From contig MEDY01000223.1 in assembly GCA_001724265.1 (NCBI GenBank), forward strand, positions 47,964-67,963: 20,000 nucleotides of DNA, given 5' to 3'. The notes beneath the pieces are model-generated. The model did no database searches. It saw only the letters and a list, made by a program, of their open reading frames with translations, and was not told the DNA's origin. The DNA comes from Rhizaria sp. SCN 62-66 (lineage: Eukaryota). The translations under genes and the position numbers were made by a program. Positions 2 to 18,001 of this stretch are shown here, in pieces. Position 1 is the stretch's first letter, and every line of letters begins with the position of its first letter.

Positions 2-3000
2 CAGCGCGTGTCGAGACTCGAGGGCCAGCTCGCTCGTCTGGCTGCCACTACGGCCGCCGCCTCGGCCGCCGCCAGCGAGGCAATCGCGGCCGGCACCGCG
101 GCCACCGAGGTCATCGCTGCCAGCAACAGCAACAACAACAACAACAGCAACAGCAACCACAGCGGAACACATGAGGGTAAGCATGACTCTGCGTCGAGTA
201 CTCATGACGACGCGAGCGCCGCGAGTGCCGCTGAGATGGCCTCCGCGGTGGCCACGGTGAGTGCCGCCTACGACTCTGCGGCCGTCTCGGCGCTCTCAGC
301 CTCGCTGTCGTCCCTCAGCAACGTCGTCTCGGACCTCAGCGCCACGCTACACGCCCGCACCACAGCGCTTGAGACGGCGGCCACCGAGCTCGACTCGCGC
401 ACCGCCAGCCTAGAACAACTCCAGACCGCCGCCAAGGCCGCGGCTGAGGCCGACAAGGCTGCTGCCGAGGCCGAGGCCAAGGCTGAGAGTGAGGCTGAGA
501 TTGCGGTCACCATGAGCGTCGTCAATAGCGTTCTCGAGAAGGCCGAGGCTGCGTTTGAGCTCGCTAGCACCACCGCGGTGACTGTGGGCAAGCTCGAGGA
601 CGGCTTAACTTCCGTCCAGGGCGACCTAACTTCCGTCCAGAGTGGCTTGGCTTCCGAGGTTGAGTCCCTCAAGAGCAGCGTAGCTTCCCTCGAATTCCAG
701 CTCGACGACGGCTTAACTTCCGCGCACAGCGCCCTAACTTCCGCCGAGGACGCGCTCTACGCCGCGATCGACACCGTGCAGAGCGAGGCCGACGCCGCGA
801 TCGCGAAGCTCGCGGCGCAGTCCCGCGCCAGTGACGAGGCCGCGCGCGCCCGCATCGCCGCCGTTGCTGATTCGGCAGCGGCGTCCGCCACTGAGGCAGC
901 GACGGCGGCCGTGGCTGCCGTGAGCGAGGAGCTGATGGAGGAGCTCGGCAAGGCCAACGCTGGACTGATGCAGACCTCGACCGACGTGGACACCTACGTC
1001 GCGGTCATCAAGGACCTCGCGGGCCGTGTCACCAAGACGGAGCGCGTCGTCGAGGCCGGCAACGCGGCCTTCACGCTGTACGCCGAGAACAGCACGGCTC
1101 GCCACGAGGCCGCCGTCGCCGCCGCCGCCGCCGCCACGGGCGCCGTGGCCGCCGCTCTGGCCGCTGCCACCGCCGCCAACGAGACTGCCGCAGAGGCTGC
1201 CGCTGAAGCTGCCGCTGCGAACGCCGCCACCGCGGCTGCCGAGGCCACTGCCGCTGCCGAGGCCGCCTCTGCTGCAGTGGCAGCTCTCTCTGCCACTGTC
1301 AACGACAACAAGGTTGTGACTGAGCAAGCGCTCGCGGACTCGGCGGTGCGGGTAAGTACCCTCGAGGAGGGTCTAAGTACCCTGCTCACGGTCACCGAGG
1401 CCATCCCCGCCCTCACGGCCACAGTCGCCACCGTCGAGACTGCGGTCACCGCAGCGCAACACGCTGCCGAGTCAGCACAGCTCATTGCTGAGACCGCTCA
1501 GGCGACTGCCGAGACCGCTCAGCAGACTGCCGAGTCGGCGCAACAACTCGCCGACTCTGCCCAGGCCTCTGCCGACACCGCCCAGGCGACTGCGGACACC
1601 GCGCAGCAGCTCGCCGAGTCCGCCCAGACCGCGGCCGAGACGGCGCAAGCGGCGGCCGACTCTGCGCAACACTCCGCCGAGGCGGCCGCTGTGACCGGGA
1701 GCAAGACCCGCGGCGAGCTCGACTTGGTGGTTGACTCGGTCGCCGCTGTTGAGGGCGACGTCGCCAATCATGGCGAGGCCATCACCGTGCTCAACGGCAC
1801 TGTCACGGCCTTCACGGCCACCGTGCAGGCCAGCGTCGGCGCGCTCAACGCATCGGTCGCGCGTTCGGTCGCCGAGGTCGACGCTAAGGCCACCACCATC
1901 GAGGGGGCGTTCGCGGCGGCCAGCGCGCAGTACAAGGAGATGGAGCAGAAAGTGGAGGTGGTGACGCTGGAGCAGCAGATGACGCGGCAGGAGTACCTCA
2001 AGGTGTTGGTCAAGCTCCGCTCGCAGGAAGAAGGCGGCGACCTGTCTCGCCGTGTCGAGGAGCTTGAATCGTCGATCCACCTCAACAACACCATGACCAG
2101 CGCGAACATCAACGCCGACGCCGCTGTGCCGCCCCATCCCCGTGTTAGTGCCGTTGGTGGCACGAGTGCAGGCCTGCTTGCGATGCGTTCAGGCTCCCCG
2201 TTCCGTCCCCCGGCCTCCGCCCTCGCCGCCGCCGCCGCCGCTGCGAATGCTAATAATGCAAACGCTCTGTCTCACGGCGACGGCGGCAGAGTCGCGGCCA
2301 GCGAGCACCACCAGCAGCAGTCGCTGTCTGACTTGTCGTTCGTCGACGGCATCGTGACCACGCACAACGAGCTCACCGCCAACGCCGCCGGAACCGGCAG
2401 CAACGCCTACAATATCAATGGCAGCGGCAGTGGCGGCAATGGTAGCGCCACCAGTAGCATGGTTGGGGACATGCCGCTCACGCCGCGCCAGCAGCAGCAG
2501 GCGCAGCACCTCATGCAGCTTCAGCAGCAGTCCCAGCAGCAGCAGCAGCAGCAGTCTCACGTGATGCGGTCCCCGCTGCGTGCAACCATCGCTGCTGCGC
2601 GCGCCAACAGCAGCAACAACAACAGCGCGGCGTCGTCGTTCGTGCACTTCCCCATCGCGACCGACGCCGCCAACACGCACAGTGTTAGCAATGGTGACGT
2701 GACGGTGACTGATGTGCTTGAGCTGGCCAGTGAGGCCCTCAATAGGGCCAACGAGGCCGAGATGGCGCTCACCGCGTTCCAGGTATGTCTCAATAACTAA
2801 AATCAACGACTTCACATTAAACACATAACGATTCTACTGTATGCCACTATTTTTACTCTAAATGCTACCTCTACATTTTGACTTTCATACTCACAATATT
2901 CCGTGTTATATCTCTCTGTTTGTAATGCCTATGAAGGCCGACGTCGAGGCCACTCTGGCCAAGCTCGCGGCCCAGAGCAAGGAGACTGTGGAGGAGACGG

Positions 3001-3846
3001 TGGCCCGTGTCACCGTGCTTGAGAACCGCATTGAGTCGGCTGAGACCCGCAGTGACGAGCTCGAGGACAAGATCGAGGCGCTTGCGGAGGAAAGTCAAGC
3101 CGCCATGAGTACCATGGGTTCCGCGAACAAGTTTACCCCGAAGCCCAAGTCCAAGAAGGATAGTAGCAACCTCGACGACGAGGATGAGGAGCTTGACGAG
3201 AGCCTCCCTGGCGCTGGCGCTGGCGCGGACGATGTAAGTGCCCGTCTAAGTGCCCTCGAGGCCCAGCTTGCGGACTCAGCTGCCCAGATCTCTGACGCAG
3301 CGGCCGAGCAGGTTGATATCCTCTCTCGTCTCGACGCCTATGACGTGCGGCTTGACTTCCTGACCTCTAGCACCACCGGCAACAACAACGACAACAACGC
3401 CCACAGCAGCAGCAGCAGCAGCAGCGCCGAGAGCAACGGCCACTCGATTGTGGCTGTGACGATGCACGCGGCGACCGAGGCCCGTTTCGCTGAGATCGCC
3501 GGTGACATCGAGGGCCTTATCTCGGGCCTCGACTCAGTGACCGACCGGGCAGATGTGGCCCACAGCAAGGCCGAGGCCGCGCTGGCCAAGGCGGACGCCG
3601 CCGCGGCCGCTATCGCCGTCCACAAACAGCAGCAGCAGCAGCAGCAGCAGTCTAACAATAACAACAGCGCGAACAACAACTCTGACGAGGCTAACAAGAG
3701 TGTCCATGGGGATGATGAGAGCGGTCACAGTAAGATCGACTCTCTGTCCGAGCGGCTTAACTTCCTCGAAGACGACTGTGAGCAGCTCGGCCGCCGCGCT
3801 GCCGCCGCCGCCGAGGCCGCCGCGCTGGCGCAGTCGGCTGCCGCGT

Positions 3847-3878
<32 letters not shown>

Positions 3879-4403
3879 GGTGTCGCCGCTGTTGTGGAGG
3901 GGCTCGGCGGCAATGCGGCAACTGTGCTGGTCCGGCTTGAGGAGGCTGAGGCGGCGGTGAGCAAGCTTGAGGCGACTGTGACGGTCAACGACACGCTTCT
4001 CAATACGAGCGTCAGCAACGTCAACACAACCAGTGATTCCAACGCGAACGCTGCGGCGAGTGCGAGTGAAATTAGTGGCGTTAAGGCTGAGTTGGCTGCT
4101 TTGCAGTCGAGCGTCACTGCCCAGTTGTCTCAAAGTCAGGCCGTGCTCGAGAGCGAGATCGCCGGCGTAAAGGTGACTGTGGGCGAAGTGGCCGGCAATG
4201 TGGAGCTGGTTTACGAAGAGCTGATGGAGGCCAAGGGGCGGCTTGACTTTGTATTTGGGGAGGTTGACGGTGTGAAGGGACACACGGGGTATGTGGGTGG
4301 TACTTACGACGCCGCCGCTGCGAACTATGACAACAACAACGCTGACAGCGCTGATGAGATCAGCAACGGTGCGGCGGTTGAGGCCAAGCAGCATGCTGAG
4401 TAA
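2..4403 (+). CDS. 5'-truncated long Ala-rich coiled-coil protein of unknown function; exons <2..2782 and 2937..4403 (>=1415 aa in window)
   Basis: Frame open from position 2. CAG|GTATGT donor at 2783 and AAG|G acceptor at 2936 join ORFs 8..2800 and 2862..4403 in frame (..AFQ|ADVEAT..) across an AT-rich intron. Heptad Ala/Glu/Gln pattern, polyN/polyQ tracts, stop TAA 4401-4403. Confidence 0.8.
1441..1685 (+). repeat. Degenerate 21-nt / 7-aa tandem repeat (A-E/D-T/S-A-Q-x-x), about 11 copies
   Basis: Translation AESAQLI AETAQAT AETAQQT AESAQQL ADSAQAS ADTAQAT ADTAQQL AESAQTA AETAQAA ADSAQHS. Confidence 0.9.
2783..2936 (+). other. Spliceosomal intron (phase 0, 154 nt)
   Basis: GTATGT...AAG, AT-rich, contains in-frame stop, removal restores the frame. 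Confidence 0.8.
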
Positions 4404-5472
4404 AGCTCAAGCTCAAGCTGAAATTACCAACAGTAATATCAAAGCCAAAAGCTAATCTTATCTCAGCAACTTGAAGCGATTGCTCCTCTCAGTCGGCCAA
4501 TCAGCAACAGTGTTGTTCTTGACGTCGATTGATTTTTGATACCTAACACATGCCCTAAGCCCTGACTTGTTTGTATTTTGTTTCTTTTGTTTGTTTCCAA
4601 GGAAAGAACGTGAAAAGAATTCTTTCTTTTGATTTGTTTTTTCATATGACTTAAAAAGTCTACATGTAAAATATGTTTTTGTATACTTTGTTTTTTTCAA
4701 ATTCGTTTTAATGATAGTTTGATCTGAAAAATGGGGGGAATTATGAGAGAGCTTGCTCGCTTTTGCAAACCTGCGCATATCAATGGCTTTAACAAACTGT
4801 TGGGATAATAATATGCTATGACGCTGATGCTGATATCACTGCCTGCGACTGCTGCTGCGACTCTGACTGGTGCAACGACTAGCAAATGGCTTTGTATGTG
4901 CTACTTTGACAATAAAATACGTATACTTTGATTCATATGCAGTCCTTCTATGATGAGTTTGTTAGACTTGTTGGCATCTCTGCGTTTATGCATCTGAGAT
5001 CTGCTATATATCGGCCTTGCACTGGCCTCTGCAACCTTGACTTGTCTTTTGGTCCCTCGACGAGGCCAGGGTGGACAAAAGCCAATGCAGAGCCGTGTAG
5101 TCCGCGCGCCAACGACTTGAGCTGCGTTGTCTGGAACAGCGCGGCGATTTTGTGTATTAATTTATTCGTATAGATGCATGTATAGGCTTGCGCTTATCTA
5201 ATGTGATGATTTAGTGCGTGTTCGCTTGGCGCCTGTCGAGACTCTCGGCGCCTGCCTTTCCTCAACTGTTACGCTCTCAAATTTCCGTCAACCAAGATAT
5301 CGTCATTATCAAGAGAACAAAACATTCAATTCTATTTGTTTTTATAATATCATATTTAGTCTTCTAAATTACATGCTTAAATCATCATTTTTTTAATCGC
5401 CCTCTTCACTCACTCTCGCCCTCTTGCCTGCACTCTAATGAACACCATCGGCCCAGAGACCAACGAAGGGCA

Positions 5473-6639
5473 ATGCCAGCGTGGTTTCTGCTATTGAGTT
5501 TCCTCGCGCTCGCTGTGCTTGGACGCGTTGCCCAGGTCGTTCTCGCCACAATGTCCCGCCGCAAGCGCCGCCAAACAGCTTTCGCCGCCTCTCAACAACG
5601 TTCCAATAACTCCAGCAACAACAGCTCCAACACCTCCAGCGCGAGCGTTAGCCAAACCAACAGCAACACGACTGGCGCTAAGACCTCATCTGCGTCTAAG
5701 AGCAAGTGGCGTGTGATGGCTGTGTTGGGCTCTGGAGGCCACACGTCTGAGCTCATGGCTGTGCTTTCCGCCGTGCCAAGGTGCGATTTCACACAATGTC
5801 GCCATATATTCGACATATATCACATGTATAATGTAACTACGTTCTTTTTCTTGAGAAACATTGTCTAACTCTAGACGCCGTATTTGTCGCTCTTTTTGTT
5901 TGTTTTACTGTTTCTTTAGGTCCAAATTCGCCTCTCTCGAGTATATCCTTGCAGAGACTGACAAACTCTCCCGCACCCGCATCGAAGCCTACGAGGCCTC
6001 ACTCGCACTCGCACACCCTCAACAGTCTCAGTCTGCTGTGAGATCTAAGAACGCTTCTGCGACTGCCGATGTGTCTGCGATCGCGGATGCACCGAAGATC
6101 AGTTTCACAACACTGCCCCGCAGCCGCGAAGTCGGGCAGTCTTTCCGCTCGAGCATCCTCACAACGGCCAAGGCGACATTATTCGCGATGAAACTCGTTT
6201 TTAGCAATGTACGTCTTTTCTTTACATCTCAAGACCCCAATCGTCACATAATCAAGTTCGCATGATGTCTCAATTGACTTTATAATCGCTACTATGAGCT
6301 TTAAACAATGAATACGCCTGAGATAACACAGAACAACTCACTTTTGTTATATAATCTAAATCTTTGTGTTTCTGCGTGCTGTATTCCCCGCCAAAGACGC
6401 CCGACTTGCTCGTGGTCAACGGCCCCGGCACATGCGTCCCCCTATGTTGGTCTGCTTTTGCCCTCCGCCTCCTCGGCCTCCGGTCGCCGCGCGTCGTCTT
6501 TATTGAGTCCTTCGCGCGCGTCTCGCGACTCAGTCTCTCGGGGTATTTGCTGTACCCGATCGTGGACAGGTTCGTAGTGCAGTGGCCGCAGCAGGCCGAG
6601 AAGTTCGCTTACTCAGAGTATATCGGAACCATCTGCTAA
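5473..6639 (+). CDS. ALG14: UDP-N-acetylglucosamine transferase subunit ALG14; exons 5473..5780, 5920..6208, 6397..6639 (279 aa)
   Basis: N-terminal hydrophobic anchor; family motifs VLGSGGHTSEL, PRSREVGQS, PDLLVVNGPGTCVP, FIESFARV..LSLSG..LY..DRFVVQWP. Introns 5781..5919 (GTGCGA..TAG, phase 2) and 6209..6396 (GTACGT..AAG, phase 0) give one continuous frame. Confidence 0.95.
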
Positions 6640-6972
6640 GAGAGACAAAACAATGACTTTACGCAATAATGCCGACATCAGAATATTTATCTTGTCTTTT
6701 TGGATACTTCATATTGTTTTTGGTTCAATTAGTGATTATTACTGGTTGTTTCACGCTTGTTTTATGATGAGTTTTGGTTCAAGAGTTACTTAGCTTCACG
6801 TTGAATATGATACATAGCACACGTATACGTTGCCTTGTCCGAGTAACACATTTAAATAATGGAAACTTGTGTAATTTTGTGGAACATATTCGCATTCTGT
6901 TTTATTTTGTCTTTATTTACGTGAACTGGTGTGTTTTCAGTGTGCTGACGTGTTGGCGCGTGTGGGATCGAG

Positions 6973-7001
6973 GTGACCGTGAGCAGCAGTGACCGTGAGC
7001 A
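6973..7001 (+). repeat. 13-bp direct repeat GTGACCGTGAGCA x2 upstream of ARP2
   Basis: Copies at 6973-6985 and 6989-7001. Confidence 0.8.
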
Positions 7002-7362
7002 CAGCCGAGCGCGAGCTTGAAGCAAGAGAGAAGGGTAGTCGTACTTAGCAGACGCCAGAAGATATCACCTTCGAAGGCTTCGCACGGCTGCCAGCATGGT
7101 TCTTTCGGTCCAGGATTACTAGGTTAGCGAGAGCAAGTGGTGTTGGTTTCGCGTATTTGATACTATGAGCGGGGGACGTTGTTGATAGGGTCTATTTTCG
7201 ATTCCCAGTGTGGCCGCGACGTCACCTCTCGTCCCCTCCAGCGCTTGCTCTTTCCGCCTCTTTCTGCTCCCGGCATCCTTTTCTAGCTTAATTCCCCCCG
7301 ACTACTAGGTAGCTCACTCTTTTTACTTCCTGCTTGTTTTGTTTTTTGCGTTTTCCAGAAGC

Positions 7363-9290
7363 ATGTCGAAGCGCACCATTGTCTGCGACAACGGCACGGG
7401 CTACTGCAAGGTCGGCTACGCCGGCTCCAACTTCCCCGAGCACATCTTCCCTTCGATCATCGGCCGCCCGATGATGCGCTTCGAGGAGGAGTTCAAGGAC
7501 GTCCAGCTCAAGGAAATCATGTGCGGCGATGAGGCTGCCAAGTACCGCTCCATGCTCAAGACCAGCTACCCCGTCGAGAACGGCCAGGTACGACACTACC
7601 ACCCTTCCTTTTATCTGCATCTTCGAGCAACGATATCTCCGCCCATCCGCACTCCCTCTTGATATCCCCACGCCAATTAAACGCAATATCGCCATGTAGA
7701 TCTGTGTTTTCAGTTTTAGTTCTTCGATCTCACTTCTTGTGCTTCTATCTTCTCCTTCTTTGCGCTGTCTCGCCGCCTCGCGCCCCTTGTCTCGCTCCGC
7801 TGGCTTCTCTGTGATTACTCGCCCTCCCCAGGTTCGCGACTGGGATGGCATGCGCGCCCTCTGGGACTACACCTTCCACGAGCGCCTCAACATCGACCCC
7901 TCGGACCACAAGATCCTGCTGACGGAGCCCCCGCTCAACCCGCTCGAGAACAAGAAGAAGATGCTCACCAACATGTTCGAGACCTACGGCTTCGCCGCCG
8001 CTAAGGTCGAGATCCAGGTACGTTCCCTTCCCATTATATAGCACCATCTTGCCATCGTCATGTTGCGGTCTAAGATAACTTAAAGATAGATGATCTCTTT
8101 TAACACCTGAAATATTATCTCTCTTCTCACCTCGATTTTATCTTGGCTCTCTATATCCTCCCGCTTTCTCGCTCCTTTTCCTCTTGCTCGACCACAGGCT
8201 CTTCTCGTGCTCTACGCCCAGGGCCTCATCAACGGTGTCGTTGTCGACTCCGGTGACGGTGTGACCCACATCGTGCCTGTCTGGGACAACACCTGCCCCA
8301 CGCACCTCATCAAGCGCCTCGATGTCGCTGGCCGTCACGTCACCCAGTACCTCATCAAGCTCCTCCAGGTACGCCTTCTACCCTCTTCACTTTCGCAAGA
8401 GATATATCGCCACGATAACATTCTTGTGACATTAATTCTGTATAACTTCATATATTTACTCAACATCTATCTATGAGTTTAAATTTATCGCTAACAAAAT
8501 CTATCTTGTGCCTTTATATTCGCTTTTGTTCTGTTTCTGTGCTTTTCTTCTCACTCTTAGGCCCGCGGCTACAACTTCAACCGCACTGCCGACTTCGAGA
8601 CTGTCCGCCAGATCAAGGAGAAGTGCTGCTACGTTGGCTACGACCTCGAGGTCGAGAAGCGCCTTGCTCTCGAGACCACGACCATGCTCGAGACCTTCGT
8701 GCTGCCCGATGACCGCGAGATCAAGGTCGGCATGGAGCGCTTTGAGGCGCCTGAGGTGCTGTTCAACCCCGCGCTCGTCGACTGCGAGCGCCCCGGTGTC
8801 CACAAGATGCTCTTCGACATGATCCAGGTCCGCATCTATCTCCAATAACATCTACCAGCTCCTTATTTTTACTTTTATTAGACCTTTTTCTTCCTTTTAC
8901 TCTTTTTACACTCTACTGACACTCACTCATCTTTGCCTCTATTTACTCGTCCTATTTGCGCTTCTACAGGAGGCCGACATCGACCTGCGTCCCGCCTTCT
9001 ACAAGCACATCGTCCTCTCCGGCGGCACCACCATGTTCCCCGGTCTCCCGTCCCGCATGGAGAAGGAGATGCGTTCCCTGTACTCTGACCTCGTCAAGGG
9101 CAACCCCACGAGCATCAAGAAGTTCCAGCTCCGCATCGAGGACCCCCCGCGCCGCAAGCACATGGTCTTCCTGGGCGGCGCCGTGCTGGCCGACATCATG
9201 GACAAGAGCCCCGAGTTCTGGATCACCAAGCAGGAGTGGGATGAGAACGGTGCGTCCATCATCCAGCGCAAGTTCGGCGGTGCCATCTAA
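7363..9290 (+). CDS. ARP2: Actin-related protein 2 (Arp2/3 complex); exons 7363..7587, 7832..8017, 8198..8368, 8561..8827, 8970..9290 (389 aa)
   Basis: Arp2-type motifs [103 protein letters not shown]. Four GT-AG phase-0 introns (7588..7831, 8018..8197, 8369..8560, 8828..8969). Strong C-ending codon bias. Exon 4 is not in the supplied ORF track. Confidence 0.97.
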
Positions 9291-9957
9291 GAATCCCCTT
9301 AGACGGGACGGACGCAGCGGTTCGGCGGCGGCGGCGACGGCGGCGGCAGCGGCGAAGAGCCTCCCCCGCACGTGTTGTGTGATCGCCGTGAGGATGTAAT
9401 TGCTTGCTGGAAGGTGCTCAATGTAAAGTAGTTTTCAAAGTCGCTCTTGAACACGGCGCGGTAAAACCAACGTAAAAATATGTAGTATAGATCAAGGTCT
9501 AAGTTCAAAGTATTGTTGTTTTGTAAAAAAATGTATATGTGTTTATCATTTCTTTTGTTCGATAAAAAGCGAATACAAATGATTTCGTTTCAAAAACGTC
9601 TGTTAAAGCCAACCGAGTTCGCCTGTGTGACAGTGACGCGACAGCCAAAACTGCTGACAGTGATGATGGTCAGTCATACTAGCTCTGCGTGTAGATAAGT
9701 ACAAGTCCGTTGTTTTGAAATGTGGCGGTGGTCTTTGAATAGATCGTTGTGGTTTTTACTATCCTTGTTAATTGTATCTCACCAGCCCCTACTTGTCGCG
9801 TGTATATCCTCTTTCCCCATCCCTACTTCCCCTCTCCGTGGTGCTCGGCCAAAGCTACCTTCCTTCGCTCACCAGGTCACACTGACCTCACTGAAACCTA
9901 GATAGGTCACGCTGCTCGTATAGCCCTTGCCTTCGAGTATCTGCAGACGACCGTCTG

Positions 9958-10072
9958 ATGCCTGTCACTGCCGCTCCAGGCACACACGGAGGCCCCCGCG
10001 CCCTCACGAGCTCAACAGCGACCGCACACTCCAACCCACACGCTGCCAGCTCAAGCTCCACAGCAATGTCAG

Positions 10073-10104
<32 letters not shown>

Positions 10105-11404
10105 TCCACAGCCGCATCTTCCGCATATAGCCCCCCGGTGGCGTCGCCCACGTTTGTGTTTGACTCCGCAGCCTTCTTCAAGCCCCGCTTCAACGAAGAC
10201 GCCTTTATCGCAACCTACCTCTCCAACGCAGCCAATGTCACCGCCACAAGCAACGCCAACGCCGCAACGGCGACATCTAGCGCCAGCGCGAACTCGGCCT
10301 ACGTTAGCGGCGTTAAGGCCCGCTACGAGCGTCTGCTCTCCGACCTCAAGCGCTGCCACTCCCACTTCACAGCGCAGTTCAGCGCTCTGCTTAACACAGA
10401 GTACGCCGCCTTCATCGGCCTCTCACAGTCGCTCGACGGCATCGCGCCGGCCGCCGCCGCGATCGCCGCGCGCGCCGACGCCCTGCTGCTGCGGCTTTCG
10501 CGCGCGCGCGCCGCGGTTGCGGTCGTGCTGGGCAAGGTTGCCGCAGCGGCGGAGGCGGCTGGCGCGGCGGCCGGGAAGGAGGAGACGCTGCGGCGGCTGG
10601 AGAGGGTCTGGGGCGAGTGCGACCAGCTGGAGGCCCTCCTGCTGCAGCGGGGCACGGGAACTGGAGAGGTGACCGTGACCAGCAGCGGTACCAGCGGTGC
10701 TCGTGATGCGAGCGGTGACTTGAAGGACGACAACGCAAGTAACCCAGCCAACAATGCAAACAATGCAAACACTGCGAGTGCGAGCGTGAGTGCATTGTTG
10801 TTCACGACCGCCGCTGCTGCAACTACTGCTACTTCTGACAGTCGCAGCCGCGGTTACAGTTGCAGCAACAACACGCTTTCTGATGCTAACGACTGTGCTT
10901 CGAATGACGAGGACGAGGACGATGACGGCGACGACTCCGATTATGGTGATGTTGATGGTGATGAATGTGTGTATGAGGCTTACCTTAAAAACGCAGACCC
11001 TCAAAGTTATGCCCCGTCCGCTGCCCATTTGACCGCCAACCCGAACAAGACTCCTGCTGTTGCTGCTGTTGCAAACGCTGCTGCTGTCTGCTCTGTTTCT
11101 CGTGTAGATATTAACGTCAGTACTCCTCAGATGCTGATGCGGGAAGCGTTGCTGCTGCTGGAGGCAGCGCAACACCTAGTGCAGGCGCACGCTACTCTAA
11201 GTACCCCCTTAGACGACGGCGGCGTCATAAGTGCGCAGGTGCAAAGCGCGGTGAAGTTGCAGTCCCAGCGGTACTTGAAGTTAAGCCGCCAGTTCCATGT
11301 AAGGGCCTCGAAGGCGCTGACGCAGACGCTGACTCTGCTCACGGAGACGTACATCTATAACCAAGACAGCAACAACACTAAGCACAACAGCAACAACAAC
11401 AGCT

Positions 11405-11441
<37 letters not shown>

Positions 11442-13155
11442 CAACAGCGGTAACAGCGGTAGCAATCGCACCAATGCACTATTCATGCAATTTCTGCGCA
11501 CTGCGCGCCTCATCCTGGCTGCTACCGCAACTGCTCCTAACACAAACACTAATGCGAACAACAGCTCGAACACTTTCAACATGTGGAGTACTAACTCTAG
11601 CACGACAGGCGCTAGTATTAGCTCTAGTGCGTCTGCGTTGGACTCAGATCCCGCCAGTGTCCGTGTGCTTGGCTGCGCAAGTGCTGAGACACTGTGCTCG
11701 AGTCTAAATACCTACTTACACAGCCTTGGCACAAACAGCATTCATGCCACCGCCTCTGCGTCTGTAGTTGCGGCCAATACGACTGCGGTTCGGAATGTAA
11801 GTAGCCCCTTGCTGGTGTCGGGCGACGGCACTTACATCTCCGAAGGTACTGACACGGACGCGGCTTTAATTCGCCTTGTCGTAGCTTGTGTGCTCCGCAA
11901 GCAACTCAAGCGTGCTCTCAGCTCGAGTGCACACGCAAGTGTCAGTGGCAGTGCCAGTGTCGCTGCAAATGCGAGCACGAGCGCGAGCAGTGTGCTGGTT
12001 GAGTCACTGGCTATTGCAGCTGAAGCTACTCTTAACAACAACAACACCAACAACAACGCCTCTAACGCTAACAGTGTGAGTGAGGTGGCCGCAAAGCTTG
12101 CGTCTGCGATGTGTCACACGGTCGTGGGCCTCCTGCCTTTGCTCGCACTCCTCTGCTCACAGTCACTCAGCTCACAGTCACTCAGCTCACAGTCCCCGAA
12201 CTCGCAGCCGCAGTCGCTGTCACGGCTTAGCTCTCAGCCGCTCTGCTCAGAGTCTCAGGCGCAGTCGCCGCTGTCCCTGGTGTCATTGTGCATCCATGGA
12301 GTCTGGCCTGAGGTGCTGCTCGCCCTGCACAACGCCTCGGGTACGTGGCGCTCACAGTCATCAGCGGCACAAAATGTAAGTACCCCTGCTGGGCCACAGC
12401 CACGCAGCAGCAACAACAACAGCAGCTCGAAGGCCAACAACACCACCACCACCACGATCACCTCCGACGGCAACGCCGCGAATGCAGGCGCAGTTGTTTT
12501 TCGGTCCTATTGGACGAACGCCGCCAACCATAAGCCGCATATCGTGCTTGCGCACTGCCACGCTCTGCAAGCCGTCGCACACGCCCTCGCGCGGTCACTT
12601 ATTGGCGGCGAGGGCGCTGCTAGCCGTACTGACGCGGCTAAACTTCTCTCCGACGTGTTCCTGTCGCACAGCAGCACGGTCGCGCTCACGCAGAGCTGGG
12701 GTGTGAAGCTCGCGTTTAGCTTGCTGATGCAACAGCCGTTGACAGCGGTCACGACAACCGCGAGCAAAATCACATCCAATGCCGCTGCCATTGCTCGCTC
12801 GAGTCTTGTGAGCGTTAGCGACAAGAGGAGCTCTAGTTCTAGTGCATCGCAGTCGTCTAAGTGGGTGTCGGGGTCAGATCTAAGTACCTTGCTTTCACCT
12901 CTGAACAACAGCACGAACGTCAATGCCCCCGCTAGCGCCACGACTGGCGGCTACTTAGACTCGACCAAGGTACTTAGCGCGGTACTTACATCCGCCTTCT
13001 CAGCCCTTACACCGCACGAACTCGTGCCCGTCGCAGCTTCGACAATGGCAACTGCGCTAGCGCCTGCGTCCGTTGCGCTGGCGGCCGCCGTCTCGGCTTT
13101 GCCGTTACTCATGCCTACAGCAACAACAACAATTCTCACTAACAATAACAATAGC

Positions 13156-13205
<50 letters not shown>

Positions 13206-14834
13206 CGCTGATGCTGGTCGTGATGCTGACGACAACGACAGCGACGGCGACTTCGACAATGACACAGGCAGTGATGCTCCGGGTGATAACGACGCAGCCG
13301 CTGTTGTTCTGCTCGCCTCTGCGTTCGCTGCGACTGCCCCGGGGGCCAACCTAGCCACCGTCACTGCCGCCGCAGCCGCCGCAGCCGCCGCCCTCTCCAA
13401 CGCCAACGCCACCTCCAACGCCAATGCCAATGTCAATGTTAACGCGAACCTGATCACTGCTGGACTAGGTGTAGCTGGTGATGGTGGGTACTGCGGCATT
13501 CCGACCATCTTACCGCCGCTCAACGGCGCCGCTGCAGCCACGGGTACCCAGAACCCACAGCCCGCCCCCCTCACGGGTACACACACGGGTACCGGTGCCA
13601 GCGCGGCGGCGGCGGCGGCGGCGGGCGGCGGCGGTGGCGTGGGCGTGGGGCTCGGCCGGCGGCGGTGGCGCTCTGCGCTGCTGCTGGCGCTGGCATTGTG
13701 TCATGACGCGACCAAGCTCGCAGTGATGGTGCCGAACGCGACGGCCGCCGCGACTGCGCGCATCCTCAACCTCCACACGGGCACGGTGAGCGTCAGCGCG
13801 GTGGTGGCCGCAGTGGCGCAGCTGACCGCGGCGGCGCGGCACAGGGCGGCCTCGGCAGCGTGGCGGGGCGGGTTGACGCTTGCGCTGGCTGCGGCGGCGA
13901 CGGCAGCGCAACACATCAATGCGGGCATCTCGCAGCAAAAGATGGAGATGATGCTCGGCAATCTAAGTACCACTCCTGGAAGTAGAAGTACCGCCGCCGC
14001 TGCTGATTCTGCGAAAGTGAAGCCGCCGAGGTGGGTTCAGGGCGTGACGGCGCTGGTCCGTGACATCGCAGCTCTAAGTACTCCTTTAGACTTAGAAGAT
14101 AACAGCATTCTAAGTACTGCGCGCGTGCCAGTGCCGCTGCCGCCCTATAACGCCCCCCGTGCGTCGCGTTTCACCGGAGTTGAGCTCGAAAATGCATTTG
14201 CGGCCTTTTTCGCGAACTGCGGCGCGGCGACAGGCTTGAACGCAACTGCAACCATGACAGCAATCTCCAACAACACCAACAACGGGATGAGTACTGCTGG
14301 CGCCGCTAGTAGTCCTAGAAGCAATATCACCGAGTTATGCGACTTGACTGGCAGCACCAACACTCCGGCGACCGGCGTCTCTGGCTCTGTCTCTGGCTCA
14401 GCCTCAGCCACTAGCACGTCTGCGTCTGCGTCCGCTGGTCCGTTGATGTTGTCGCTGCTGCTCTGGGTGATTTCCCGCAGTGTGACGACGGCGCTTACGA
14501 CGGCACTGTATGAGACGATCACGACGACGAAAGCGCTTGAAAACTCACTCTTATCCCTCAACTCTTCTCGTAACCCGATCAACACGAACATCGCTAGCGC
14601 AGCGAGCTCTAGCTCTGGTGTAAGTAGCGGCTCTGCTGCTGCGGCTGCGGTGAGTGCGCGGCTTCACTTAAAGGAGAATAGGCGGCTTAACTTGGCGCAT
14701 TGGGCTGAAGGAGGGCTTGACGTCGTTTATGACACCAAAGTCGCCACTGCTGCCATGAGCTTTGCCAGCCATAGCCGTACGATTGCGCTTTCTCTTGCAA
14801 AGGCTCGCTCTGCCGTTGTATCACTGGAACAACA

Positions 14835-14877
<43 letters not shown>

Positions 14878-15573
14878 GTTGGCAGTGGCGGTGAACAGAA
14901 GCTGGAAGGGCTGGGCTTGGGTGGTGAGCTGTTGTCTCAGCTGACGAGTGAAAAGGACGTTACTACAAAGCCGTTCAGTCTGACTCGTCATAGTAGCACC
15001 GACCGCAGCAATAACGCCACCACTTCCGACGCAAGTGTTTTGTGGTCGTTACTGATTACTCCTGACCCTCCTCTGCTCCACAGCGTTTCCGCCAACACCA
15101 AGGCCGGATGGGTCGCTATTTGCGCTCACCCTCAGTACTTCGCCACAGGAGCTGCCACCGCCACCAGTCCCTCGCTCGGTGGCGGCGGCTTAACTTCAGC
15201 CGCGGGGCGCGAGACGCGGCTTGTGTACTGCGTGGCCACGACGGGCGCAGCGGGCAAGAAGAACAGTGTTGCCTTCCATGCTGACTCGGCTGTGACAAGC
15301 ACGAAGTTTGCCTCGGTCGCGACAGCGAACCCGGCTTTACTGTTCACGGTGCCTCTCGATAAGTTCTCACTTGTGTATAGCAACGATGCGGGCGCAAGCA
15401 ATGCCAACGCGAGCGCTGTAATGAACGCTGGTAGCAACAGCAGCGCTAGCCGCAATTGGTTCGACTTAGTCCCTCTTTCTGCTGCTGGTGATGATAACGA
15501 TGCTTCTGTAATGACTGTGGTTTGCCGTAGTAACACCGAAGCAAGTCAGTGGGTGCAGGCACTGTTGCGCTGA
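9958..15573 (+). CDS. COG2: Conserved oligomeric Golgi complex subunit 2-like protein, 1871 aa, single exon, many low-complexity inserts, PH-like C-terminus
   Basis: N-terminal FVFDSAAFFKPRFNEDAFI...LLSDLK...LLNTEYAAFIGLSQSLDG resembles the COG2 N-terminal pattern (F..DF..D.F / L..DL / LIN.DYADF..LS..L.G). Later blocks HGVWPEVL, QSWGVKLAF, PPRWV, ETITTTKALENSLLSL follow the order of COG2 blocks as I recall them. Identified by eye, not by search. Confidence 0.75.
11386..11448 (+). repeat. Coding (AAC)n/(AGC)n microsatellite (polyN/polyS)
   Basis: Trinucleotide runs encoding NSNNNSCSSSSSSSSSNNNNS. Confidence 0.9.
13156..13206 (+). repeat. Perfect (AAC)17 coding microsatellite (polyN)
   Basis: Direct read of the sequence. 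Confidence 0.95.
14830..14874 (+). repeat. (CAG/CAA)15 coding microsatellite (polyQ)
   Basis: Direct read of the sequence. Confidence 0.95.
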
Positions 15574-16116: not shown

Positions 16117-18001
16117 ATGTCCGCCTCCGCTGTTGCGAAGCCGACCCTGACGACCCCGATTACTGTGGGCCGCCTCTCGCTGACGCACCGCGTCGTTCTG
16201 CCCCCGCTCACGCGTGTGCGCTCTGACCCGGCGACGCTGGCTCCCAACGCCATGATGGCCGAGCACTACAAGCAGCGCGCCACCAAGGGCGGCCTGCTCA
16301 TCTCCGAGGTACGCAGGCACTCTCAAATCAAAACATAATCAACTCTTATATAATATATATCTTTGTTTTATTTGATATAAGTGTATCTATGCCGTAATAT
16401 CTTCACTTTTGTGTCGCAGCAAGCGCTTTTCGTTATTCTCCGAGCTTCCCTTCCGCCCCTCTCTCACACTCTCCATCCTCACTCTTTCCCTCTGCTTTTA
16501 CTTTGCGCTCGTCTCTCAGGCGACATACATTTCCCCCGAGACCATCGGCACCAACTTCGCGCCCGGAATCTGGTCCCCCGAACAAATCGCCGGCTGGAAG
16601 CTCGTGACCGATGCAGTCCACTCGAAGGGCGGCTACATCTACTGCCAGCTGTGGCACATCGGCCGCATCGCGCACGCGTCTTTCAACGAGCACCACCTCG
16701 TCAAGGGCTCCGGCTACCAGGTCAACCGCTCTGCGTCGGATATCCCGCAGGAGGGCGAGACCAATACCACCCTCGACGGCTCGATGCAGCCTCATGTGAA
16801 GCCGGTGCCTTTCACTATCGAGGACATCGCCCGCCTCCGCAAGGACTATGTCCACGCCGTACGTTCCTCAAAACCTCAAGCAAAAATGAGAAACATTACT
16901 TGAATAAGACAGTCGGGTTTTTGCAGTCGTTTGTCGCAGCGCTTGCTAACTTGTTTTTCTTCCTCTTTTTTTTCTTCTTTTTTTGTGCACGTGTCACAAT
17001 TCCAACCGTCTCATTATGATATTTGCTTGTTCTATATATACGTTATCCAGGCCAAGAACGCAATCGAGGCCGGTTTCGACGGCGTTGAGCTGCACGGCGC
17101 GCACGGCTACCTTATCGACCAGTTCCTCAACTCGGGCACCAACATCCGCACCGACGCGTACGGCGGCTCGGCTCTCAACCGATGCCGTCTCCTCAACGAG
17201 GTGCTCGGCGACCTCTGCGCGGCCGTGGGCAACGACCGCGTTGCGCTGCGTCTGTCCCCGCACGTCAACAAGCCGCCGATGTTCTTCGGCATTACCTGCA
17301 AGAACGCTGTGGCGACTTATAAGACTGCCTTCGCGACGGCGGCGACGCACAAGCTGGCGTATCTGCTTGTGACTGAGTCTCGCTGGATCCCTAGCGCCAG
17401 TGACAGCGACAACAACGCGCTCATGCAGCAGCCCTGCGCGGCCTCGCTCATCTTCAAGTCCGCCTACGCTAAGGACGCGACCCCGGAGAGCGTGGAAGTC
17501 GAGTCCGACGACGAGGCCATCTCTAAGGCGACCGCCGAGAACGCCGCCGCCACGGCCGCCGCCATGGCCGGGCTCGAGCTGGCCGGCCCCGTCATCGGCG
17601 CGGGCGGCTTTACGCCCGTCTCCGCCGCCGCCGCCGTGAACGACCGCGTGTATGATCTCATCGGTGTCGGCCGTTACTTTATCAGCAACCCCGACCTGCC
17701 GTATCGCATCACCAAGGGGCTTCCGCTTAACACATACGTGCGTGAGAAGTTCTACGGGCAGACCGCCGACGGGTACACCGATTACCCGACGTTCGCCGAG
17801 GTGTGCGCTGAACTGGGCGTGTCCGAGGCCGATTACCTGCCCCAGGCTGAGGGTGAGGCTGCTGAGACTGAGGAGGCCAAGGCTGAGCGGCTGGCCAAGA
17901 TCGAGGCTTTGGTGGAGTTGAGTAAGACCAAAGGGGTTAAGTACCCGCTTATCTCGGCGCAGAGCATCGGTGTTAGCACGTCTTCGGCCACCCGCAAGTA
18001 A
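16117..18001 (+). CDS. Old Yellow Enzyme family FMN-dependent NAD(P)H ene-reductase (NemA/OPR-like, classical type); exons 16117..16308, 16520..16858, 17051..18001 (493 aa)
   Basis: Motifs [102 protein letters not shown]...GYTDYP. Phase-0 introns 16309..16519 and 16859..17050. Confidence 0.95.

Follow-up and report, generated by a model that had tools for sequence, protein, structure and literature searches.

The window, by which we mean the whole stretch of 20,000 nucleotides analysed, comes from a wastewater eukaryote and carries two long, GC-rich and intron-poor genes alongside ARP2, ALG14 and OYE. The two reading frames of gene 1 are probably joined by one intron, while gene 2 consists of the single frame ORF3. 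Searches for homologues of ORF3 gave none at near length and none among 1.84 billion representatives, and a search against prokaryote genomes returned no match. The ARP2 of the window is 89% identical to its best relative and at most 75% identical to the others; its PDB matches were uninformative.

The two long genes hold 30 sites of two short DNA words, 11 exact copies of word A and 19 sites of word B (Table 1). All of these lie within the three long ORFs, which together represent 49.8% of the window, at a combined density of about 3 sites per kb. The other exons of the window, equal in GC content to the long ORFs (0.618 vs 0.619), contain 0 of the 30 sites. The introns and spacers, around 6.5 kb of non-coding DNA, contain no word A site, no word B site and three ACTTASA heptamers. 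The initial annotation of this DNA had reported word A to be absent from ARP2, ALG14, OYE, introns and spacers, and this was borne out, every copy falling in ORFs 2-2800, 2862-4403 or 9958-15573.

Table 1 Host genes and word sites in the window.
Feature	Position	Strand	Sequence or reading	Basis or context
Host gene 1	2..4403	+	alanine-rich coiled-coil, low-complexity protein; ORFs 2-2800 + 2862-4403	extends past the 5' end of the window
Host gene 2 (ORF3)	9958..15573	+	single 1871-aa low-complexity ORF	without detectable homologue
Word A	601..611	+	CGGCTTAACTT, G-L-T	inside 108-nt internal duplication with 709
Word A	709..719	+	CGGCTTAACTT, G-L-T	inside 108-nt internal duplication with 601
Word A	3092..3102	-	N=G, antisense to gene; sense E-S-Q-A	within RNA-library contig X7 2935-3370
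Word A	3348..3358	+	N=G, R-L-D-F	motif scan, register read; RNA contig comparison
Word A	3753..3763	+	N=A, R-L-N-F	motif scan, register read
Word A	4239..4249	+	N=G, R-L-D-F	within polyA RNA contig X11 4086-4314, 0 differences
Word A	11278..11288	-	N=A, antisense; sense K-L-S-R	motif scan, register read
Word A	14015..14025	-	N=C, antisense; sense K-V-K-P	within RNA contig X10 13936-14414
Word A	14659..14669	+	N=C, R-L-H-L	within polyA RNA contig X11 14510-14766
Word A	14683..14693	+	N=A, R-L-N-L	tandem partner of 14659; RNA contig comparison
Word A	15186..15196	+	N=A, G-L-T-S	motif scan, register read
Word B, two copies	1351..1381	-	sense GTAAGTACC-N12-CTAAGTACC (V-S-T...L-S-T)	
Word B, two copies	3233..3254	-	sense GTAAGTGCC-CGT-CTAAGTGCC	
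Word B	4299..4308	+	sense-strand copy	
Word B	11196..11205	-	sense CTAAGTACC, L-S-T-P-L-D unit	
Word B, four-copy cluster	11703..11854	both	11703-, 11796-, 11827+, 11845+	
Word B	12375..12384	-	sense GTAAGTACC	
Word B, four-copy cluster	12879..12990	both	12879-, 12950+, 12969+, 12981+	includes inverted 12-nt pair
Word B, three copies	13962..14118	-	13962, 14073, 14109	flank word A at 14015
Word B	14619..14628	-		40 nt upstream of word A at 14659

Two families of over-represented words

Word A, CGGCTTNACTT, occurs 11 times in the window vs 0.08 expected. All copies listed in the initial annotation, eight on the + strand and three on the - strand, were recovered, and its rough expectation of well below one copy agrees with dinucleotide shuffles (mean 0.08, maximum 2; at least 11 copies in 0/200). 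The excess also survives the synonymous-shuffle and Markov checks that it had suggested, run here within the window. A synonymous-codon shuffle, which preserves each protein and its codon usage, gave a mean of 0.37 (maximum 3; at least 11 in 0/2000), and a frame-aware order-5 Markov model gave 0.08 when the sites were masked in training and 2.96 (maximum 7 in 200 runs) when the word A copies were included. Each strand is enriched alone, with eight sense copies vs 0.29 expected and three antisense copies vs 0.08, either count being reached in 0/3000 shuffles.

Word A is sharply defined, since CGGCTTNAC occurs 14 times and is followed by TT in 11 of the 14. A one-mismatch search adds just five sites to the 11 exact copies, so that exact copies outnumber near ones. 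The variable base N is A in six copies, G in three and C in two. The flanks resemble a position weight matrix, with G at -1 (9/11 copies) and -2 and with Y then C after the word; variable-length identity is absent, and the longer form of the word is GGCGGCTTNACTTYC. These bases are the only ones that the 11 copies have in common over 40 nt of flank, and no longer shared unit was seen. A transposon, MITE or other dispersed repeat was ruled out, since its copies would share a longer unit that has termini or target duplications.

Reading each copy gave five of the six codon registers, as originally described: GGC-TTA-ACT (G-L-T) is used three times, CGG-CTT-NAC (R-L-D/N/H) five times, and E-S-Q-A, K-L-S-R and K-V-K-P once each. 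The suspicion that 601 and 709 stem from one internal duplication also proved correct. The duplication spans 108 nt, and within it the words form a conserved island in a diverged surrounding unit. Because 601 and 709 share this duplication and 14659 and 14683 are a local tandem pair, we count about nine independent copies of word A.

The initial annotation had described word A alone. Word A is real, but at least two word families exist, and the stronger one, GGTACTTASA (= TSTAAGTACC; word B), had been overlooked. Word B has 19 sites at one mismatch or fewer vs 0.97 expected. In an unbiased 7-/8-mer scan against synonymous shuffles, trinucleotide repeats aside, the top ranks are taken by the word A and word B families only, with word B above word A. 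Observed and expected counts were 10 vs 0.37 for ACTTAGA (exact copies in the long ORFs), 7 vs 0.08 for CTAAGTAC, 9 vs 0.27 for GGTACTTA and 5 vs 0.15 for TTAACTTC. The most enriched tetramer is AAGT/ACTT (68 vs 37), and ACTT, preceded by T or C, is common to words A and B. Each strand of word B is likewise enriched separately, the observed counts being reached in 0/3000 shuffles.

Sense copies of word B contain GTAAGT or CTAAGT, and of the 14 TAAGT copies on the sense strand of the long ORFs, 13 stand in the frame xTA-AGT. The L-S-T tripeptide is encoded CTA-AGT-ACY in six of six cases, thus word B produces the peptide and not vice versa. Both words are written with codons otherwise rare here. 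The enrichment of words A and B exceeds what protein sequence, codon usage and dicodon statistics predict. A third word, CTCACRGTCA (word C), was seen eight times vs 0.07 expected, partly in tandem, and a 21-nt unit at 11196 is found again at 14073.

Placement, RNA contigs and other sequences

The first 1.2 kb of ORF3 is free of word A and word B sites. The word clusters of ORF3 lie about 565 bp apart (Rayleigh R 0.98, with 1/5000 random placements as regular, in a test applied post hoc), and this spacing is weaker in gene 1. Tracks of TA and AT content lack the spacing, and simple compositional periodicity was rejected. Orientation leans sense (word A 8:3, word B 13:6, together 21 to 9), and five of the six sense-strand copies of word B (+ in Table 1) have an opposite-strand copy within about 100 nt. 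Selection for off-frame stop codons was rejected, the words making up 49 of the 564 off-frame stops. An inverted-repeat excess was rejected as well, since the scan output was mostly low complexity.

We compared the word sites with RNA-library contigs from runs X2, X7, X10 and X11. The four contigs delimited in Table 1 are colinear with the DNA, with 0 gaps, and cover 10 of the 30 word sites; most sites lie outside the listed contigs, and our statements on RNA concern the covered ones. No splice joint was found at a word in these contigs, while the four ARP2 introns are skipped in RNA-library contigs. Thus, words A and B are not introns. The runs come from other, independent studies, and at the covered sites their sequence is identical to that of the window (0 differences).

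Of nine intron starts in the window, four are RNA-confirmed (ARP2); GTACG is found in 6/9, GTNCG in 8/9 and GTAAGT in 0/9. Real branch-like sites in the window have CTAAC or CTGAC with T as the next base. An AG lies 5-19 nt after every word A copy, near the chance rate and not specifically as YAG. A hairpin candidate at 12850-13000 did not exceed shuffled sequence in stability (z = -1.1), and an Rfam search matched no family. What the 20-kb window shows is a genuine, non-random set of words that occur irrespective of strand and frame, only in the long ORFs, and without being spliced out.

We looked for the words in other sequences. Twenty ARP2-bearing metagenome loci (151 kb), retrieved with a relative's ARP2 as query, contained 0 copies of word A; the window's own contig is not among them, and the closest relative is represented by a cDNA-like contig and a 3.3-kb contig, both without long genes. 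Prokaryote loci (448 kb) also contained 0 copies, and viral loci (1.04 Mb) gave 120 chance matches to the 14-mer and four extra word A copies. The pair-of-motifs pattern matched 31 loci in viral contigs, all of them unrelated phage tandem repeats, and the composite word B pattern matched nine unrelated viral loci, of which L176 contains phage repeat arrays. The L-S-T-P-L-D unit, used to search for further DNA of the organism, gave 0 matches. The tandem word C pattern gave 0 loci in viral contigs and 59 unrelated loci in bacteria. A literature search on the word strings returned primers only, and one on the phenomenon returned only a paper on bacterial uptake sequences (PMC2817400) and none on such words in eukaryotic exons.

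Proposed DNA-level recognition and its alternatives

A DNA-level signal overlaid on weakly constrained coding sequence, as first suggested for word A, is supported within the window by the excess over synonymous shuffles and over the masked Markov model, and by the enrichment on each strand. We tentatively propose, with somewhat less than even confidence, that words A and B are DNA-level recognition sites kept by selection in weakly constrained long exons, with a type IB topoisomerase (Top1) as the candidate reader. A sequence-specific DNA-acting protein would recognise both words, and selection would retain them where protein constraint is weak enough. The reading frame would determine nothing but the base at N, since stop codons have to be avoided. 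We infer recognition at the DNA level and upkeep by selection; Top1 as the reader is speculative, by analogy with known Top1 sites. If Top1 is the enzyme, long GC-rich transcription units would carry the words as strong swivel points every ~0.5-0.6 kb.

The data base for this proposal is 20 kb of the organism's DNA and two host genes. The sites of DNA-binding factors usually occur in promoters and spacers too, and the promoters and spacers of the window hold none, which speaks against DNA-level sites. The sense lean and the nearby opposite-strand copies of word B are equally compatible with an element acting in RNA or with local copying in inverted orientation. A broader version, in which a eukaryote has a genome-wide vocabulary of 10-13 bp words in long GC-rich exons, in any frame and on either strand at about half-kb spacing, serving as Top1 or chromatin entry points or as an uptake-like drive, we regard as unlikely.

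The preferred site of Top1 works in either orientation, and the Tetrahymena rDNA hexadecamer is the standard Top1 substrate. Top1 sites are said, by Bonven 1985 and Andersen 1985, to cluster in rDNA spacers; the words differ in lying in exons. According to PMC1636438, the preferred Top1 substrate has the core GACTT/AG, with T strongly preferred at -1. Measured against this core, word B contains the core ACTT/AGA of the classical preferred substrate, the over-represented ACTTAGA heptamer, and ACTT, which ends word A and lies within word B, would place T at the preferred -1 position (PMC1636438). The words differ from the classical site in lacking its downstream A/T tract (27 ACTTA[GC] flanks tallied) and in having T or C before ACTT, where the classical site has G or A. 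The conserved CGGC/GGCGGC of word A and GGT of word B have no Top1 explanation. The long ORFs already abound in generic WSWT tetramers of the Top1 type (44 per kb), thus they show no obvious lack of such sites. Many known motifs had been compared by eye before this one, which leaves the 7-nt match no more than suggestive, and the Top1 link is a lead rather than a demonstration.

It is also possible, though unlikely, that functionless words are accumulated by a drive or mutational process, through biased repair or gene conversion in their favour, in the way that Chi and uptake sequences build up in bacteria, or through templated copying or template switching of 10-20 nt patches, inverted ones included. 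Such a process would account for words that sit where the protein is little constrained, in either orientation and in several frames, for the 11 to 5 ratio of exact to one-mismatch copies of word A, for the repeated 21-nt unit and word C, and for the local inverted pairs 12879/12969 (12 nt) and 11796/11827. Tripeptides specified by the words are roughly doubled, with every L-S-T word-encoded, as PMC2817400 describes for uptake sequences. A function-blind process should hit unconstrained DNA at least equally, yet the introns and spacers hold no word A, and to this absence pure drive is a poor fit. The flanks are without the variable-length identity expected of copied patches, and BLASTP shows no internal repeats in ORF3. 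We know of no drive of this kind in eukaryotes.

As RNA-level elements, the words could recruit snRNPs or an RNA-binding protein to long intron-less exons while remaining unspliced, or could pair with their inverted copies, which we consider rather improbable. The GTAAGT or CTAAGT of sense word B (UGUAAGUACC or UCUAAGUACC) makes it similar to a 5' splice site bound by U1, and word A (CUUNAC, core TTNAC) resembles the yUnAy branch point with its variable base exactly at n. The restriction of the words to transcribed coding sequence of long, intron-poor genes, the word-free start of ORF3, the lean to the sense strand and the presence of words in RNA contigs all fit such elements. However, antisense copies of both words are enriched in their own right, the organism's own 5' splice sites are GTNCG rather than GTAAGT, and the contigs run through the covered words unspliced. 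The hairpin and Rfam results and the near-chance frequency of AG downstream of word A also argue against RNA elements.

Protein repeats or short linear motifs ([LV]-S-[TS]-P, G-L-T-S, R-L-x-F), with codons alike through recent duplication, are very unlikely to have given rise to the words. The duplication of 601 and 709, the 8-codon tandem pair 14659/14683, the shared xTA-AGT frame, the several ORF3 copies that give L-S-T-P, V-S-S-P or V-S-T-P, and the three sense word A copies of ORF2 that all read R-L-D/N-F are what such an origin would produce. However, a biased frame is what avoidance of stop codons and the scarcity of K and Y in these proteins would lead one to expect. The words yield unrelated peptides across five of six registers and both strands, BLASTP within and between the ORFs found no repeat at E below 0.8, and DNA similarity ends at the word edges. 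A protein-repeat origin is largely refuted for the whole word set, and protein repeats account only for 601/709 and 14659/14683. Chance, post hoc choice or an assembly artefact is hardly credible, for although the motif was chosen after inspection of one metagenome contig, no shuffle reached the observed count, the unbiased k-mer scan returned the same words, and the independent runs agree at the covered sites.

Relation to known DNA words and biological meaning

We compared words A and B, which we tentatively read as DNA-level recognition sites, to known word systems. Like Chi and other orientation-biased recombination words, they are short and over-represented in coding DNA regardless of frame. 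Chi is strongly polar relative to replication, and its sequence is unrelated to the words here.

The USS of Pasteurellaceae and the DUS of Neisseria belong to naturally competent bacteria with a sequence-specific uptake receptor, and occur in hundreds to thousands of copies genome-wide, intergenic DNA included. As in these systems, word A is strongly over-represented against composition- and codon-aware nulls (11 vs 0.08-0.37, window only). By contrast, the window has two or more unrelated words side by side and no copy of word A in its ~6.5 kb of non-coding DNA, and since the host is eukaryotic, with spliced genes (ARP2, four introns), the uptake machinery is inapplicable to it. Further likenesses, as far as PMC2817400 describes USS and DUS, are a word of 9-12 bases over-represented in both orientations and several frames, the use of poorly conserved protein positions and the inflation of encoded tripeptides.

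If the words are confined to these two genes, they would be a mere curiosity of low-complexity gene evolution. The reading as DNA words would explain the persistence of the rare codons TTA, CTA, AGT and ACT in such genes and, if true, would mean that selection may favour strong sites for Top1, or another factor, at intervals in long GC-rich transcription units. If the words occur genome-wide, they would be a clear eukaryotic DNA-level signal that shapes which codons hundreds of genes use and even which amino acids they encode, a pattern known from bacterial uptake sequences and not from nuclear exons. They would then constitute a second, non-protein code over coding sequence, so far described only in bacteria.

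Two word families and the codons that carry them

All 11 copies of CGGCTTNACTT (word A, an 11-bp motif) were found at exactly the positions reported in the initial annotation, against 0.08 expected from dinucleotide shuffles of the window, and the codon registers described for them were correct on re-reading. The word is sharply bounded. CGGCTTNAC occurs 14 times in the window and is followed by TT in 11 of these; allowing up to one mismatch adds only five sites. The variable base N is A, G or C, as the frame tolerates. In nine of the 11 copies G stands just before the word, and the two bases after it are often Y and C, giving a fuller form, GGCGGCTTNACTTYC. The pair at 601 and 709 is accounted for by internal duplication and 14659/14683 is a tandem pair, thus about nine copies are independent.

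The excess survived synonymous shuffling, in which codons were permuted inside each ORF with proteins and codon usage preserved (0.37 expected, maximum 3, 2000 shuffles). Each strand is significant by itself, sense (8 vs 0.29) as well as antisense (3 vs 0.08), and none of 3000 shuffles was as high. A frame-aware 5th-order Markov model with the sites masked gave 0.08 expected copies, and the same model trained on the word A copies themselves gave 2.96 (maximum 7, 200 runs).

The single motif of the initial annotation is real, but at least two word families are present and the phenomenon is broader than described. We scanned all 7- and 8-mers without bias against synonymous shuffles; trinucleotide repeats aside, two families lead, word B (GGTACTTASA, or TSTAAGTACC), which is the stronger, and then word A. 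ACTTAGA was observed 10 times (0.37 expected), CTAAGTAC seven times (0.08 expected) and GGTACTTA 10 times in the window (0.18 expected). With up to one mismatch, word B has 19 sites in both orientations (1351-14628), against 0.97 expected. The most enriched tetramer, ACTT (68 vs 37), is contained in both words.

All six L-S-T tripeptides in the long ORFs are written CTA-AGT-ACY (1373, 11197, 12880, 13963, 14074, 14110), with codons that are rare (CTA is 6.5% of leucine and AGT 18% of serine codons). A composite, GTAAGTRCC-(N3 or N12)-CTAAGTRCC, is found three times (1352-1381, 3234-3254 and, inverted, 12969-12992), and G always begins its first half and C its second. The long ORFs are poor in GGCTC/GAGCC (9 vs 24), CGGCTC (2 vs 8.7) and AGCACT (1 vs 7.5) and enriched for GGCTT and AGTAC, the versions with C changed to T; GC-rich synonymous spellings of the words are thus avoided. 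A 21-nt L-S-T-P-L-D unit lies at 11196-11216 and 14073-14093, 2.9 kb apart, differing only at two synonymous C/T positions; it contains an inverted repeat of 6 bp, TCTAAG...CTTAGA, with T-TTAGA in the second copy.

Gene context, location and spacing

Every recognisable gene of the window is carried on the + strand. The two ORFs of gene 1 are probably a single gene joined by a short intron, because the first ends near an intron-like start (CAG/GTATGT at 2783; region 2783-2930) and the second has an unlikely N-terminus. Gene 2 (ORF3) has a weak COG2_N-like match in its N-terminal region and nothing else; 1.84 billion cluster representatives include no homologue of its C-terminal 572 residues, and BLASTP found no internal protein repeats. 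Among 5.8 billion proteins, the nearest match to ARP2 has 89% identity and all others have at most 75%; two loci (L032 and L047) attest a relative with an ARP2 about 90% identical. The window comes from an uncultured eukaryote, and parts of it recur in 16 rows from 8 studies, in runs sampling bioreactors, wastewater and activated sludge.

Genes of the window and sites of word C
Feature	Position	Strand	Description
Gene 1	ORFs 2-2800 + 2862-4403	+	5'-truncated, alanine-rich coiled-coil
ALG14	~5473-6640	+	
ARP2	7364-9290	+	4 introns
Gene 2 (ORF3)	9958-15573	+	low-complexity ORF, 1871 aa
Old-yellow-enzyme gene	~16119-18001	+	
Word C	1385, 6974, 6990, 12156, 12171, 12351, 15635, 18866		coding + non-coding

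Word A had been described as embedded in long exons, and all 11 of its exact copies, like all 19 word B sites, lie inside the three long ORFs, which together occupy 49.8% of the window. The remaining exons, whose coordinates were placed by eye with RNA joints for this comparison, have no word A or B site despite equal GC (0.618 vs 0.619). Non-coding DNA of the window has no word A site and three ACTTASA heptamers, and neither word occurs in the initial 1.2 kb of ORF3.

Words A and B co-cluster. In ORF3, cluster centres are 537, 601, 555, 1105, 616 and 535 bp apart (11196-15196), a period of 565 bp (Rayleigh 0.98) that was equally regular in one of 5000 random placements (p ~2e-4, post hoc). 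For ORF3 and gene 1 combined, the periodicity has p = 0.006 (post hoc). One lattice position, near 13495, is empty; rare CTA, GTA and TTA codons are still grouped there. The TA and AT content tracks have no period of ~565 bp.

Elsewhere, word A is absent from metagenome loci encoding ARP2 relatives (151 kb) and from prokaryote loci (448 kb), and viral loci totalling 1.04 Mb contain four extra copies. Searches of metagenome, prokaryote and viral sequences recovered no other DNA of the host, nor long genes from a close relative. A phage-like contig (L176) carries GGTAACTACTTAGG-type repeat arrays with 14 copies of GGTACTTA (3284-3438, 8093-9110, 13001-13143). These arrays, which are AT-rich, intergenic and tandem, appear unrelated to the window.

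A further word, CTCACRGTCA (word C), was observed eight times in the window against 0.07 expected, partly in 15-16-nt tandem units. Contig depth in one matching sequencing run (X2) is ~8600 at 6987 and ~6 nearby, thus tandem word C is very abundant in that sample.

Readings of the words

The feature is real and statistically robust, and is documented in just two genes on one contig. Within the window, our results uphold the proposed DNA-level signal over weakly constrained coding sequence, a proposal that had missed the second family. They support a word that sets the codons, and sometimes the residues, and not the reverse.

Alternatively, a functionless drive resembling that of uptake sequences may have spread the words. 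This would match their placement across frames and at poorly constrained positions, as described for uptake sequences (PMC2817400), and would leave their absence from introns and spacers unexplained. An RNA-level element also matches, since the words keep to transcribed long exons and favor the sense strand by 21:9, but it leaves unexplained the independent enrichment of antisense copies. Rfam gave no match, and a hairpin from the inverted pair 12879/12969 folds no better than shuffled sequence (z = -1.1).

Sense word B resembles a 5' splice site, and TTNAC, the core of word A, a branch point. Introns of the window are 140-245 nt long and pyrimidine-rich, with 5' ends GTACG/GTNCG (7584-8967; 5783, 6209, 16310, 16860), and the nine readable starts are GTACG (six), GTCCG, GTGCG and GTATG. 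All four ARP2 introns are spliced out, with no differences, in a 1336-nt RNA contig (record 23 of run X7). Words as introns, or word B as the host 5' splice site, can be dismissed: RNA-library contigs are colinear and gapless over 2935-3370, 4086-4314, 13936-14414 and 14510-14766, spanning 10 of 30 word sites in libraries where ARP2 is spliced, and none of the nine starts reads GTAAGT.

We tentatively favor DNA-recognition sites as the general reading, at somewhat less than even probability. Topoisomerase I (Top1) is the only concrete candidate reader, though an improbable one. The standard preferred Top1 substrate (PMC1636438) has the cleavage core ACTT/AGA with T strongly favored at -1. Word B shares this core, a match reached after trying many motifs. 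The words lack the A/T tract that lies downstream in the classical site. Also against Top1, the GGCGGC and GGT flanks are without explanation and generic Top1-type tetramers are already frequent in the long ORFs (44 per kb). If Top1 were the reader, the words would act as strong points of swivelling, spaced out along GC-rich transcription units that are long, and such sites would be indifferent to orientation and frame.
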